This document shows positions 12 through 6,469 of a stretch of 64,000 bases of DNA, piece after piece. The notes beneath the pieces are model-generated. The model did no database searches. It was not told the DNA's origin and was given only the letters and a program-made list of their open reading frames with translations. Position numbers and translations under genes: made by a program. The DNA is from Escherichia coli. GTDB lineage: Bacteria > Pseudomonadota > Gammaproteobacteria > Enterobacterales > Enterobacteriaceae. Where the stretch lies: the NCBI RefSeq assembly GCF_013315695.1, contig NZ_CP054353.1, one strand, 5' to 3'. Each line of letters begins with the position of its first letter. The stretch's first letter is position 1.

Positions 12-1067
12 TTAACCAATTTTGACGGTAACAAATTTGCGAATATCTGCCGGAACCGGCTGCGGTGCGCTGTGCGTCTGCACGTACTCAATCGCCGGAT
101 CGCCGTCCTCAATCCAGTTTTTCGGGTAAAACATGTTTTGCGTTGCGCCCGTTCTTACCGCTTCCTGTTCCAGGATCGCACCATAGGCCACCAGCCCTTT
201 ATTGTTGGTGTTGCCCAGGACCAGCAAATCAGGCTCAAGGAAATATTTTTCTGTGCCGTCGCTGTCAGTGTATTTGCCGGAATAGACGATAAGGGCCAGA
301 TCACCAAGATAGCCTTTAAAGCTCACCACTTCGCCCAGGTTTTTACATGCCAGCTCTGCGGCGGATTCTGAACCACGGGAGAGATCGTACAGTTCACGGA
401 ATTTTTTAAAGCTGCGTAACATGCGCCATACATCAACGCCCATAATCATGACGTTTGCGGGGCAACCTGCCTGATCTGCGTATAGCTCAATGTCATAGAT
501 TGGGTCGTGTATGTCTTTGTCCTGCTCTGACCATTTTTTACCGTCGGCCTGCTCTATGATGTTTTTTTCCGGTATCTTCCAGTCGATTTCATAGCGCTCT
601 ATGCCTTCGCCCTCAATGATGTTTTTTCCGGTCGTTACCGCATTTACCGCCAGCCATTCCACGCGCGCTTTAATGGCGTTTATCTGGCGGCGCATGTTGC
701 CAGTAATCAGGCGCATACGGCGGTAGGTAGGGTCGTTAAGCTGTGCTGGATCTTCTCCAGCCATGCGCATTATTGTTTTTAATGGATCGATTTCGTGTTT
801 TGGCTTCATGTAGCCAGGGCGAATAATGCTTGTTTCGTACCCTTTATCGCGCTGAACCTGGCTACCCACCATAGGCGAACAAAACGCCGACATAGTGACT
901 TCTTCAATATCCAGGTTATCTAACATGATGTCCTGTGTGTTGAATGTCGCCACGTTCGGGAAAAACAGCGCGGTAAACAGCGGACTGAATTTAAATTCCG
1001 CAATATCCTCGCGATTCAGGTACGCAAAAAGCTGGTTAGTGTTAAGTGCTATTGCTTTTACTGTCAT
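12..1067 (-). CDS. Major capsid protein, lambda gpE-like family
   Basis: A 351-aa ORF whose length and sequence character fit the phage major capsid protein E family. Its start overlaps the stop of the upstream small ORF, and it lies in a separately promoted operon. Confidence 0.75.
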   Translation of the reverse strand: MTVKAIALNTNQLFAYLNREDIAEFKFSPLFTALFFPNVATFNTQDIMLDNLDIEEVTMSAFCSPMVGSQVQRDKGYETSIIRPGYMKPKHEIDPLKTIMRMAGEDPAQLNDPTYRRMRLITGNMRRQINAIKARVEWLAVNAVTTGKNIIEGEGIERYEIDWKIPEKNIIEQADGKKWSEQDKDIHDPIYDIELYADQAGCPANVMIMGVDVWRMLRSFKKFRELYDLSRGSESAAELACKNLGEVVSFKGYLGDLALIVYSGKYTDSDGTEKYFLEPDLLVLGNTNNKGLVAYGAILEQEAVRTGATQNMFYPKNWIEDGDPAIEYVQTHSAPQPVPADIRKFVTVKIG

Positions 1068-1273
1068 TATTCACCCCCGTGAACCTGATTCATACCCAGC
1101 GCCGCGCGTAAATAGGCGCGTACCTGCCAGCCTGTTGACGGCTCAACCATCGCCAGCGGATCAAGTCCTGCCGCAATGCCTGCTTTTACGTTCTGCTGGT
1201 GGCGTTCCTTGAGCGCCTTCACGATGTCGGGGCTTATGTACACCGAAACACCGCCTTTTTTCTCTTCAGCCAT
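1067..1273 (-). CDS. Hypothetical 68-aa protein, first gene of the capsid operon
   Basis: An ORF with an AGAGGA Shine-Dalgarno upstream, translationally coupled to the capsid gene. I recognise no family. Confidence 0.5.
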   Translation of the reverse strand: MAEEKKGGVSVYISPDIVKALKERHQQNVKAGIAAGLDPLAMVEPSTGWQVRAYLRAALGMNQVHGGE

Positions 1274-1302
1274 AGTAAGAAATTCCTCTTTGACTTAAAA
1301 AA

Positions 1303-1357
1303 TCATAACTGGATGTTCATCCAGTTATGATTATAATCATGATTGCATTTTGTGCAA
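1303..1357 (-). promoter_or_regulatory. Candidate late-operon promoter (-35 TTGCAC 1352-1357, 16-nt spacer, perfect -10 TATAAT 1330-1335) with a 28-bp palindromic operator (1303-1330)
   Basis: TCATAACTGGATG-tt-CATCCAGTTATGA has perfect 13-bp arms and lies immediately downstream of the -10, over the predicted start site. It overlaps the 14-bp palindrome ATGATTATAATCAT (1327-1340). Confidence 0.45.
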
Positions 1358-1437
1358 TGATATTGAGTTGCGTTGCAAATTATGAAATTATTATCCCGAT
1401 CATGTGTGTCAGTGCACCAAAAAACCTCATATGCAAA

Positions 1438-1476
1438 AGCCCGATAAGCCACCTCTGACCTTATCGGGCTTTTTTT
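1438..1476. terminator. Rho-independent terminator hairpin (bidirectional appearance)
   Basis: An 11-bp stem AGCCCGATAAG/CTTATCGGGCT with a T-run on the plus side and an A-run on the other side. Confidence 0.55.
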
Positions 1477-1482
1477 GGGCGC

Positions 1483-1506
1483 AAAAAAGCCGGATTGCTC
1501 CGGCTG
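1483..1506 (-). terminator. Rho-independent terminator after the PerC-like gene
   Basis: On the minus strand the stem AGCCGGA/TCCGGCT is followed by TTTTTT, about 20 nt after the stop at 1528. Confidence 0.6.
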
Positions 1507-1527: not shown

Positions 1528-1776
1528 CTACTCTGCTAATTTGCTCAGCCCCATGTCTGCGTAAGTGCGATTTACTGCATTTCTCAGGTCTGCATAGTTC
1601 TCCGTTGGCGGCTCCGGTGGCCTCTGTGCCTTCCTGGAACATTCCAGCCGTCGCATCGTGATGTGATGCCGTTCCTTGTCTGTCTCCACCAGCATCATGA
1701 CTTCACCCCATCGCGCCGCCGCCCTCCGGTAAAATCCTTTCGCTTCGAGTTCTTCCGCTATGCGGTCATGTACCAT
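1528..1776 (-). CDS. PerC-family transcriptional activator-like protein (82 aa from internal Met)
   Basis: The N-terminus MVHDRIAEELEAKGFYRRAAARWGEVM matches the LE-KG-YRRAA-RW signature I associate with PerC/Pch proteins. The longer track ORF overlaps ssb and is unlikely to be real. Confidence 0.5.
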   Translation of the reverse strand: MVHDRIAEELEAKGFYRRAAARWGEVMMLVETDKERHHITMRRLECSRKAQRPPEPPTENYADLRNAVNRTYADMGLSKLAE

Positions 1777-2815: not shown

Positions 2816-4954
2816 TTAATCTTCATCATCAGGCTGGAACATCAGCACGTAAAAAACATGCTGCTTACCCCCAATCTTGCCCAGCGCCTTTTTTTTGTAT
2901 CGGCGATCGCTTCCCTTCTCCAGCATTCCGGCAGCATCCAGGGCACGCGCAAAATGCGCCGGATTAAATCCCTTCGCTATCTCACTCTCAAACACGTGCG
3001 GGAACGTGTAATAGCGCATCTCGTCATCTTCGTTGCGAATGCTCCCTTTTCTGTATCCGGCAAGCTCTTTAATCGGTAAATCACGCTCATCTGTATTGGG
3101 GTACGGAAGGTAGCGGCTAAACCCAAACGACGACAAAAACGCCTCAGCCTGTTCAACCATCTGTTTAAATTCCCTGTTACCCGTGCCGAACTCCTTCACC
3201 CAGGCATTAAAGTTATGCTGTATCGCGTCGCGGCATTCCTGCACGACCCAGCCAGTTACATGACCGGAAAGCACAAGCGCGGCCTCCAGTATGGCGAAAC
3301 GTTCACCCACGCGGTGGACCTGCTCGCCGTAGCTCTCCGGTATCAGGTTGCGCCACCGTTCGCGGCATTCCCTTACCGTATCCTTTGCCTCCTGCTGGTG
3401 GCCTGCCAGCCATTTAACCCACTCACGACCCGCCGCCCCGTGATTTGCTGTCCAGGCATCCTTTAACGCGTCAGCATGTTCCTTACCGTTGCTGTATTCG
3501 TGAAATTTCGTGGCTTTTTCCATCGGAACGTTAAGCAGTCGGACAAGCTGCCCCGCCTTAACTTTTATCCCCTCACTTTTGAGGAATGTCTCAACGTCCA
3601 TTTCTCCGGTGCTGATTGCCACCGTTCGCCAGTGTTTGATCTCCCTGTTGCCGCCATCCTTCGCCCCCTGCAATTTCCCTGAACCGTTAAACAGCGTATA
3701 AGCAGACGTTGACACTTCCCGCGCATTTCCGGCCTGGCCTATCTCATCCAGTGGTAAAAGCCCGTCATTATGGGCCTCGGCCTCATTGGCAATACCTAAC
3801 GCCGTGCCGTACCAGGTCAGCCGCTGCGCGTCCGGCTCTCCCCATAAACTTGATGCGATGTTCTGCGTGGTGGTCTTACCTGCCGATGACTGTTCGAAAA
3901 GATGCACCCCGAAGCCGTCAGCACCCACAAGGCCAATTAAAGGCGCTGCCAGTGACGTTGCCACACCCAGCATCATTGAGGCATTACCGCCAGCCAGCCG
4001 CGCCACACTCTCGCGCCAGCCCTCCGCCGTACCCGCCACGGAATAACCGTTAATCGCGGCGCTTTTTCCGGTAAACAGGATCGGTTTTTCAGAATCACCA
4101 ATGATCGAACCGTCCGGCATGATGTACGCGCCAAAATGCCAGCCCGTTGTTGTGCTTAACTGCCATTCCTCATGGCTTCCGCTTAACTGCATCCAGTCCG
4201 CCAGGATTGCCCTGTATTTGCCGTTGGTTGTCACGTTCAGCCCGTGATCTTTAAGTAACCGCCAGCCGTCACGGTCGCCGATACCACCACACGGGATCGC
4301 CATTGTGATGACTTCATGATTTGCTAATTTTTTCCAGCGCATGACGCGGTAATGCTCTTTACCGATCGTCCCCGTTCCCAGTAGTTCAAGCGGAGAACAT
4401 AACCACGTCTCAGGCCGGATAATTTCGCCTGACTGCTTATCCACTTTGGGCGTTACCCAGAAAACACCATCGGCGCGACTTTCAACGCGTGGCTTTAATT
4501 CGTCATCGCTATGGCTTCCGGTATCTTTTTTCTTTACCGGAAACTCAATAACCAGACCATCAGAAAGATTCTGCCGCTCACGGGCCAGATATTCGCGCCA
4601 GTTCTCCACCTCCTGACCGTGCATTCCATCAGGGTAAAAATTTGCATCCTGTACGCCTGCCGCCGCCAGCTTCTGACCAATCGCCTTGATCATTACTGGC
4701 TCAAGATGTCCGGCCCTGAATATGCGTACTGATTTTCGGCCTTCCGGCACAATTTGCAGCTTATCCAGTTCGGCAAGTTGTTGCTCTCCAAGCCAGACAG
4801 GAGGCACGTTATCGCCAGCCAGTCGCCCGTCCTGTTCCTGCCACTGTTTCGCATGTGCCCAGGCATCACTACCCGCAAAAATGATGACTTCCGTCATTTT
4901 GTCACGTGGCTGGTGTTTTAAATTTGGCGCTTTTTTCATTTCTGCTCTCTCCAC
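2816..4954 (-). CDS. Satellite replication protein: primase/helicase (TOPRIM-like N-terminus plus DUF927-type P-loop domain)
   Basis: A 712-aa ORF with Walker A SSAGKTTT and a Walker B-like LLPLDEIG. It has the size and position typical of P4-alpha/PICI Pri-Rep proteins. Confidence 0.75.
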   Translation of the reverse strand: MERAEMKKAPNLKHQPRDKMTEVIIFAGSDAWAHAKQWQEQDGRLAGDNVPPVWLGEQQLAELDKLQIVPEGRKSVRIFRAGHLEPVMIKAIGQKLAAAGVQDANFYPDGMHGQEVENWREYLARERQNLSDGLVIEFPVKKKDTGSHSDDELKPRVESRADGVFWVTPKVDKQSGEIIRPETWLCSPLELLGTGTIGKEHYRVMRWKKLANHEVITMAIPCGGIGDRDGWRLLKDHGLNVTTNGKYRAILADWMQLSGSHEEWQLSTTTGWHFGAYIMPDGSIIGDSEKPILFTGKSAAINGYSVAGTAEGWRESVARLAGGNASMMLGVATSLAAPLIGLVGADGFGVHLFEQSSAGKTTTQNIASSLWGEPDAQRLTWYGTALGIANEAEAHNDGLLPLDEIGQAGNAREVSTSAYTLFNGSGKLQGAKDGGNREIKHWRTVAISTGEMDVETFLKSEGIKVKAGQLVRLLNVPMEKATKFHEYSNGKEHADALKDAWTANHGAAGREWVKWLAGHQQEAKDTVRECRERWRNLIPESYGEQVHRVGERFAILEAALVLSGHVTGWVVQECRDAIQHNFNAWVKEFGTGNREFKQMVEQAEAFLSSFGFSRYLPYPNTDERDLPIKELAGYRKGSIRNEDDEMRYYTFPHVFESEIAKGFNPAHFARALDAAGMLEKGSDRRYKKKALGKIGGKQHVFYVLMFQPDDED

Positions 4955-6441: not shown

Positions 6442-6469
6442 GGCGACCTCCCAAGGTCGCCTTTTTTTT
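6442..6469 (+). terminator. Rho-independent terminator
   Basis: The stem GGCGACC/GGTCGCC is followed by T8. Confidence 0.65.

Follow-up and report, generated by a model that had tools for sequence, protein, structure and literature searches.

A LexA-box-like palindrome at the putative capsid-operon promoter of an EcCICFT073-type island in Escherichia coli

The window analysed here is a stretch of 64,000 nucleotides of Escherichia coli DNA, in which positions 1 to ~8,350 are part of a ~10-kb island between clpS and cspD. This report concerns the intergenic region in front of the capsid/decoration operon of the island, where a long perfect palindrome lies over the inferred start of a putative promoter on the minus strand. 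The inner 20-mer of the palindrome, AACTGGATGAACATCCAGTT, resembles a box for the host repressor LexA. In the reading that we favour, its core, CTGGAT-N4-ATCCAG, would be a host LexA operator over +1, with a probability that we place a little below even, and would then be one input among several.

The capsid operon and its putative promoter

The island encodes an integrase, AlpA, an Icd-like protein, DUF4222 (RgdR), a DUF927 primase, SSB and PerC, as assigned by Pfam and PHROG. Beyond two terminators are a 68-aa open reading frame (ORF) and a capsid gene of the lambda gpE family, and gpD-like decoration and scaffold-like proteins are encoded past the window start. The island is an EcCICFT073-type Gram-negative phage-inducible chromosomal island (PICI), judging from its gene content, its location between clpS and cspD, the identity of the promoter and palindrome in CFT073, and two cosN sites in locus L001. 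Islands of this type are ~10-15 kb long and consist of integrase, AlpA, primase/replication genes, a late capsid/decoration module and cos sites (PMC6092414). In EcCICFT073, c1499 is the capsid gene and c1500 the decoration gene, and AlpA is the activator that starts the Gram-negative PICI cycle, being induced by the helper phage and not by SOS (PMC6092414).

The cosN sites in L001 are two perfect lambda-type sequences (GGGCGGCGACCT) just beyond the window start, at 11641-11652 (+) and 12165-12176 (-). They are in opposite orientation between the scaffold-like gene and a 93-aa ORF, and match the two cos sites of EcCICFT073. No Rpp-sized gene is annotated between them in this island variant. 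The palindrome itself was considered as a cos site and rejected, as nothing cosN-like is found near it and the two perfect cosN sites of the island are downstream of the scaffold-like gene.

The features around the palindrome are as follows.

12..1067, minus strand: major capsid protein, lambda gpE family, c1499 homologue (Pfam PF03864, E = 3e-49)
1067..1273, minus strand: 68-aa first gene of the operon, homologue of CFT073 c1498 (PHROG 3255)
1284..1289, minus strand: conserved Shine-Dalgarno sequence AGAGGA, with a distance of 10 nt to the ATG at 1273
1297..1302, minus strand: six consecutive T (U6 in RNA), immediately past the 3' arm of the palindrome
1301..1332: perfect inverted repeat, minus (coding) strand AATCATAACTGGATG aa CATCCAGTTATGATT, spanning ~-9 to +23 of the inferred promoter
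1307..1326: LexA-box-like 20-mer AACTGGATGAACATCCAGTT, CTG-N10-CAG, at ~-3 to +17, with the core CTGGAT-N4-ATCCAG at 1309-1324
1327-1340: second palindrome ATGATTATAATCAT, perfect over 14 bp and centred on the -10, with ATGA/TCAT in common with the main palindrome
1330..1335, minus strand: -10 hexamer TATAAT (6/6), abutting the palindrome
1352..1357, minus strand: -35-like hexamer TTGCAC, 3/6 matches to TTGACA, with a 16-nt spacer to the -10
1431..1505, minus strand: two tandem intrinsic-terminator-like hairpins that would end the upstream replication/PerC operon
1528..1776, minus strand: PerC-family gene, the last of the upstream operon (PF06069, E = 1e-35)

Along the minus strand, the elements are arranged in the order TTGCAC (1357..1352), 16-nt spacer, TATAAT (1335..1330), palindrome, six T, AGAGGA and the ATG of the 68-aa ORF (1273). 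The two hexamers and the 16-nt interval agree with the sigma-70 layout of -35 and -10 elements at 16-18-nt spacing, and transcription would start at ~1323, ~7 nt downstream of the -10. A previous sequence-only reading of this region had located TATAAT, TTGCAC and the 14-bp palindrome over the -10 correctly. Its description of the promoter as consensus-like is an overstatement, since TTGCAC agrees with TTGACA at only 3/6 positions, which is also the reason that a consensus promoter scan omitted the site. The hexamers alone are within chance, as TTGC-N18-20-TATAAT is present at least once in 43 of 100 shuffles. The case for the putative promoter rests on position and conservation, not on the hexamer match: TTGC, the 16-nt spacer and TA(T/A)AAT are retained in all lineages examined. 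The -10 is invariant in the main lineage except for one TGTAAT, and reads TAAAAT in a minor lineage described later. The palindrome and the -10 are identical in the prototype EcCICFT073, where the -35 reads TTGCTC, and the promoter region is found in 618 of 5,426 complete E. coli genomes (~11%).

The distal terminator-like hairpin (1505..1482, minus strand; -12.1 kcal/mol) is followed by T6, and the proximal one (1431-1476; -23.4 kcal/mol) is bidirectional. The double-terminator structure is kept in diverged relatives by differing sequences. The capsid/decoration operon would have its own sigma-70-type promoter behind these terminators. This independence, already proposed in the sequence-only reading, is supported by the conservation of the arrangement in E. 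coli, Salmonella and Pluralibacter and by the separate regulation of c1498-c1501 in CFT073. A divergent promoter or small RNA on the plus strand was also considered on account of the palindromic ATTATAAT and the bidirectional terminator. It was rejected because the minor lineage has kept the -10 of the minus strand and not that of the plus strand. An Rfam search at the site matched no family.

The inverted repeat at 1301-1332 is perfect over 15+2+15 bp, with arms at 1301-1315 and 1318-1332. The palindrome with 13-bp arms noticed earlier, TCATAACTGGATG-tt-CATCCAGTTATGA at 1303-1330, is real and is the inner part of this longer repeat with 15-nt arms. No perfect inverted repeat in the 64-kb window is longer; the runner-up has arms of 12 nt, and the longest arms in 20 block-shuffles of the window were only 8-10 nt.

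The LexA-box-like core and its conservation

The LexA-like 20-mer begins 3 nt past TATAAT, and its position relative to +1 depends on the inferred start. We scored LexA-likeness by the Berg-von Hippel/Lewis heterology index (HI) with a matrix of 18 published E. coli LexA boxes (PMC3009722, Table 4), which differs from the original Lewis matrix and gives absolute HI values somewhat off the published ones. The HI of AACTGGATGAACATCCAGTT is 6.98, compared with 0.6-12.8 for the 18 true boxes in leave-one-out scoring, and it outscores nine of the 18 (recA, uvrD, cho, ruvA, uvrB, ftsK, dinB, polB and dinG). It ranks first among the 63,981 positions in the window, where the next HI is 11.6 and the mean is 35.8 (standard deviation, 5.6). 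Proven LexA boxes have HI values below about 12-15 (PMC11002266), and an HI near 7 falls in the low-HI class validated by PSOSP as LexA-binding in K-12. Among two million random perfect 9+2+9 palindromes, a fraction of 1e-4 to 2.7e-4 had an HI of 6.98 or lower. Since random palindromes score so well only about once per 10,000, the LexA-likeness is not a by-product of palindromy.

All 12 core bases agree with those of the ruvA box CGCTGGATATCTATCCAGCA, which is a proven one, and the cho box CACTGGATAGATAACCAGCA has the left half, CTGGAT, as well. The half-site differs from the 20-bp consensus, TACTGTATATATATACAGTA, by a T6-to-G change that is shared with the ruvA, cho and dinG boxes. The sequence features of a LexA operator, namely a CTG-N10-CAG dyad with an AT-rich centre, an HI within the proven range and conservation at orthologous sites, are thus all found in AACTGGATGAACATCCAGTT, and the statement in the sequence-only reading that the site is not a LexA box cannot be maintained. 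Two weaker LexA-like 20-mers are present in the window, at 8140-8159 in the integrase gene (ATCTGGATAATTTCCCAGCC, HI 11.6) and at 3159-3178 in the primase gene (HI 12.6). Their HI values are like those of the weakest proven boxes, but neither is at a promoter, and both are probably matches by chance.

The conservation of the site was examined in upstream regions extracted by homology from 81 loci (one E. coli genome and 80 from IMG/VR) together with the window, giving 50 distinct 190-nt sequences. Relatives were drawn from IMG/VR, E. coli genomes and exact-protein look-ups; scans of species-representative genomes with the capsid protein and with an alignment of the 68-aa protein yielded no confirmed relatives. 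The box is found at the same place in 81 of the 82 loci, with HI values of 5.2-9.2, and is the best LexA-like site in 49 of the 50 distinct sequences. A second set, which was found via the 68-aa protein and overlaps the first, has the box in 76 of 80 loci. The sole exception among the 50 sequences has a 1-nt insertion in the box centre.

One island, L077/L112 (a single IMG/VR contig), has one base inserted in the box centre. The resulting CTGGATGAACAATCCAG breaks the CTG-N10-CAG spacing (HI 20); the copy has decayed, or the sequence contains an error.

The columns without any variation are precisely CTGGAT and AT.CAG. A single variant of the core is seen, CCAG to ACAG, and it shifts the box towards the LexA consensus (HI 5.95). 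Variation is found at positions 1-2 and 19-20, in the central four bases and in the arms beyond the 20-mer. In the homology-aligned loci, conservation per position correlates with the information content of the LexA box (rho 0.61, p 0.02 by a permutation that preserves dyad symmetry). In Salmonella islands, the site reads GACTGGATAAATATCCAGAT (HI 8.3) with non-palindromic flanks, and in Pluralibacter islands it reads AACTGGATGTTTGTCCAGTT (HI 7.6) and has moved 12 nt downstream; the core is kept in both, so that CTG-N10-CAG stays while the surrounding sequence diverges. Directly observed are the match in sequence and how rare it is, where it stands with respect to the -10, and that it is conserved. 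An operator-like palindrome over the inferred +1 had been proposed earlier, and the constrained core agrees with that proposal.

With a LexA dimer bound at ~-3 to +17, the polymerase would be impeded in forming the open complex or in escaping from the promoter. RecA-stimulated cleavage of LexA in SOS is the signal that also induces lambdoid helper prophages, and it would therefore raise transcription of the morphogenesis operon. LexA binding and repression, like the transcription start, are what we infer from the observed features.

Another element beside the LexA-like box should be mentioned. An ORF of 43 aa at 1327-1458 on the plus strand (MIIIMIAFCAMILSCVANYE...) encodes a very hydrophobic sequence with the look of a type I toxin. 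It was rejected as a gene because most variants have lost its start codon and many have a broken frame.

Expression, the RNA hairpin and other candidate regulators

Several observations weigh against LexA control. In EDL933 treated with ciprofloxacin at 0.06 µg/mL for 2 h, the capsid mRNA of CP-933C changes -1.8-fold, whereas canonical SOS genes rise 2- to 6-fold and the CP-933C primase mRNA rises 5.3-fold (PMC11125564). The CP-933C capsid protein is detected in uninduced EDL933 and is unchanged at 3 h and 12 h with ciprofloxacin (PMC11125564). The island of EDL933 is taken to have an intact box (HI 6.26), which is shown in the O157:H7 strain TW14359. The SOS inducibility expected for a LexA operator is not seen in these published EDL933 data, which cover one strain, dose and time point, and this result argues against LexA as the dominant control. 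In CFT073, the mRNAs of c1498-c1501 rise together on a shift from 23 to 37 C, without DNA damage (PMC12890032). The promoter is not tightly shut, since this rise occurs without DNA damage. EcCICFT073 interferes with infecting lambda in non-lysogens (PMC6092414), and late functions must therefore be reachable without SOS. Further, LexA contacts ~20 bp, and the 32-bp palindrome and the compensatory changes in its outer arms are left unexplained by LexA. Finally, a minor E. coli lineage (L082, L083 and L147-L149) has the promoter and lacks the box (HI > 18).

The operon is thus expressed without helper phage or DNA damage, and the sequence-only expectation that it stays silent until helper infection does not agree with the capsid protein in uninduced EDL933 or with the temperature response in CFT073. 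The joint rise of c1498-c1501 suggests that the capsid operon is a separate transcription unit, in support of its own promoter. As a speculation, buffering by a second regulator, late sampling or lysis of induced cells could mask an SOS effect.

The minor lineage retains the double terminator, the TAAAAT -10, the U-run, the ribosome-binding site and a pair of ATTGCA-N5-TGCAAT sites described later. At the position of the LexA-like core it has only CATGAC-N9-10-GTTATG. L083 has a small-terminase gene, and the L082 and L083 islands carry a RepA-type helicase instead of the DUF927 primase. In O157 islands (L084, 2796-3190; O157:H7 TW14359), perC and the capsid promoter are separated by an insertion of ~370 bp, which contains two additional small ORFs and another, third copy of the terminator, and the promoter and box are unchanged.

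The long arms of the palindrome should be considered separately from the core. The conserved feature is the 16-bp core, and not the perfect arms of 13-15 nt, which represent one variant. Over 23 distinct variants, pairing is kept in 92.8% of cells. Seven pairs show no variation, and the outer pair 17:38 is unpaired in 11 of the variants. The outer pair of ATGATTATAATCAT in these variants is CG in nine, AU in five, UG in one and unpaired in eight. Some pairs of the outer arms have changed on both sides (T:A to C:G, C:G to T:A, and TAA:TTA to GGA:TCC). These changes could reflect selection for an RNA or DNA hairpin, and could equally be template-switch mutations. Template switching homogenises quasipalindromes, and changes that look compensatory can arise from it without selection.

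The centre of the palindrome (homologues of 1316-1317 and their flanks) flips among GAAC, GTTC and GTAC in L049, L136, L137, L143 and L144. Some islands have a spacer-less 32-nt palindrome with compensated changes in the outer arms (AATTATAAC...GTTATAATT). The flips and compensated arms suggest hairpin-mediated template switching or inversion.

The hairpin itself leads to an explanation at the RNA level, which we regard as rather unlikely. It supposes that read-through transcripts form a 14-bp hairpin with U6, as a third terminator insulating the capsid operon, and that transcripts from the operon's own promoter form an 8-9-bp 5' stem-loop, by which the mRNA might be shielded against 5'-end-dependent decay. 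A terminator scan lists the full hairpin, which has a folding energy of -17.3 kcal/mol (z -6.4) and is followed by UUUUUU; stems of intrinsic terminators are usually G+C-rich, and here 4 of the 14 pairs are G-C. Values of -10.7 to -13.4 kcal/mol are retained in O157 and other variants, and the Pluralibacter hairpin is clean and lies with its U6 entirely within the transcript. The two-sided changes in the outer arms (U:A to C:G, C:G to U:A, and UAA:UUA to GGA:UCC in RNA) also speak for a role in RNA, and the constitutive, SOS-independent expression in EDL933 suits an element that does not repress. However, RNA started at the putative promoter would lack most of the 5' arm because the -10 overlaps it, and would hold only an 8-9-bp 5' stem with a gap of ~4 nt to the U-run, which is non-canonical for a terminator. 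A purely structural stem should be able to covary, yet none of the six core pairs does so across E. coli, Salmonella and Pluralibacter, and pair 17:38 is broken in 11 of the 23 variants. The U-run is present also in lineages without the hairpin, which indicates that it is not tied to the hairpin. A stem this LexA-like would arise by chance only about once in 10,000, and template switching can mimic the compensatory changes. The hairpin is not a canonical attenuator of its own promoter; it is plausible as a third terminator for early-operon read-through and as a 5' stabiliser. If LexA does not bind, the element would be an ordinary leader hairpin.

A different dimeric repressor might also recognise the palindrome, such as the 68-aa protein, AlpA or PerC of the satellite, a protein of the helper phage or another host factor, with the LexA-likeness being coincidental or partial mimicry. 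We consider this unlikely. The lack of SOS induction in EDL933 and the dyad symmetry that extends beyond 20 bp in many variants are in line with it, and the operon's first gene might encode an autoregulator, judging from its model: the AlphaFold model of the 68-aa protein (pLDDT 73.7) is a small strand-helix-helix. A Foldseek search with this model against the PDB gave no significant match, and the ribbon-helix-helix (RHH) fold remains unconfirmed. Its N-terminal strand GVSVYISP does not vary, whether or not a lineage has the palindrome, which disfavours the protein as the cognate repressor; the satellite RHH repressor of the sequence-only reading, probably this 68-aa protein, is thus an unlikely candidate. 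The gene for PerC is missing from some related islands that retain the same promoter, and no second copy of the motif, which is often expected for an island-encoded regulator, is found in the island. Another candidate is an FNR site (TTGAT-N4-ATCAA), which could be read as TGGAT-N4-ATCCA here. By eye, this is disfavoured because the invariant block takes in the flanking C/G of CTG/CAG. The tolerated variant ATACAG loses a base that is important for FNR binding.

Two further sites are found upstream of the palindrome.

1342..1358: palindrome ATTGCA-N5-TGCAAT with 0 mismatches, overlapping the -35 and spacer, centre at ~-27
1372..1388: second, degenerate copy (ATTTCATAATTTGCAAC, minus strand) with 2 mismatches, centre at ~-57

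The copies are 30 bp apart, and all lineages have retained them, also where the LexA-like box is missing; 1372-1388 is among the best-conserved stretches of the intergenic region. Both copies are probably sites for a second regulator of the capsid operon. LexA would then modulate the promoter and not switch it, because other regulators probably act via these sites at ~-27 and ~-57.

The position of the ~-27 copy brings to mind a Q- or AlpA-style antitermination cassette, in which a constitutive promoter with a loading site (ATTGCA-N5-TGCAAT) between the -35 and -10 is followed by a terminator, here the palindrome with U6, that is bypassed via a helper-induced factor. The conserved palindrome at ~-27 fits such a cassette, and the architecture resembles that of the alpB promoter in Pseudomonas aeruginosa, where an element that AlpA binds lies between the -35 and -10 and the first gene has an intrinsic terminator just ahead of it (PMC7969949; PMC9371919). 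We nevertheless find it improbable. The terminator would be incomplete in the E. coli variants, as the inferred start is inside the hairpin, and the operon is expressed without helper induction. In EDL933, early genes rise with ciprofloxacin and the capsid gene does not. When the satellite AlpA was compared with PDB chains by phmmer (E <= 1), the only match was 8c3t_A and no P. aeruginosa AlpA chain was among the matches, a negative that assumes the presence of P. aeruginosa AlpA structures in the PDB copy searched. The shared name is no evidence, since there is no detectable sequence match to the antiterminator AlpA of P. aeruginosa. The remaining probability goes to the palindrome having no function.

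Two observations elsewhere concern the vicinity of alpA and the edge of the island. A hairpin at 6442-6469 on the plus strand (GGCGACCTCCCAAGGTCGCC), followed by T8, is directly downstream of alpA, which is on the opposite strand, and is terminator-like for plus-strand transcription towards alpA. At 8646-8907 on the plus strand, upstream of cspD and just outside the integrase end of the island, there is a sub-threshold match to the Rfam cspA thermoregulator, with 29 bits (E = 1.6e-4) where the gathering score is 78.

Comparison with known systems

On a wider scale, we suggest, with more doubt than confidence, that enterobacterial PICIs including EcCICFT073 wire the capsid/decoration operon to SOS via a LexA operator at +1. 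They would be a Gram-negative and independently arisen counterpart of SaPI (Staphylococcus aureus pathogenicity island) operon I with two separate inputs: excision and replication would depend on helper-induced AlpA, and morphogenesis on the cleavage of LexA. The 32-bp palindrome would also be an RNA hairpin blocking read-through from the early operon. In the literature searched, whose coverage is incomplete, LexA is not reported to control the late genes of Gram-negative PICIs; there were likewise no LexA binding data for the site and no description of how late genes for capsid, decoration and packaging redirection are regulated in these islands. If the proposal is true, a LexA operator would give these satellites a helper-independent cue, parallel to SaPI biology. 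It would also bear on the spread of islands with PerC/RgdR virulence regulators under SOS-inducing antibiotics in patients or livestock. The element is directly testable because it is identical in the experimentally tractable EcCICFT073.

SaPI operon I, for packaging and morphogenesis, is under LexA control, as Ubeda et al. 2007 (Mol Microbiol 65:41) is cited in PMC6092414. Both islands are PICI-class satellites in which a morphogenesis/packaging operon has its own promoter and a host LexA-type site, both putative here, and such a site would tie the late genes to the SOS signal that induces helper prophages. The hosts differ, and so do the genes, being terS and cpm in the SaPI operon and lambda-E/lambda-D-like capsid and decoration genes here. 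LexA binding and SOS induction are demonstrated in the SaPI system, whereas here there is a sequence match and one data set against induction. The boxes are also different, as the Gram-positive LexA box is CGAAC-N4-GTTCG and the one here is CTG-N10-CAG.

The ruvAB and cho boxes share the CTGG...CCAG half-sites and CTG-N10-CAG spacing with the present site, which has a similar or better HI. Unlike these boxes, whose centres are AT-only, the present site has GAAC at its centre, and it is a putative operator within a 32-bp perfect palindrome on a mobile element.

LexA-repressed switches of temperate phages include the p95/tum promoter of coliphage 186 and those of the Gifsy antirepressors. There, as would be the case here, the mobile element relies on host LexA for sensing DNA damage and has no need of a cleavable repressor of its own. 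The phage promoters are for antirepressors, by which induction is triggered, whereas the one here would drive structural genes of a satellite, in which induction is governed separately by AlpA.

The alpB/AlpA system and lambda PR'-tR'/Q share with the present site a conserved element between the -35 and -10 and a hairpin with a U-run before the first gene. They differ in that the hairpin here overlaps the -10, the AlpA is not detectably homologous and expression occurs without the factor. Overall, the closest functional precedent is the LexA control of SaPI operon I, and in sequence the site is nearest to the SOS boxes of ruvAB and cho.

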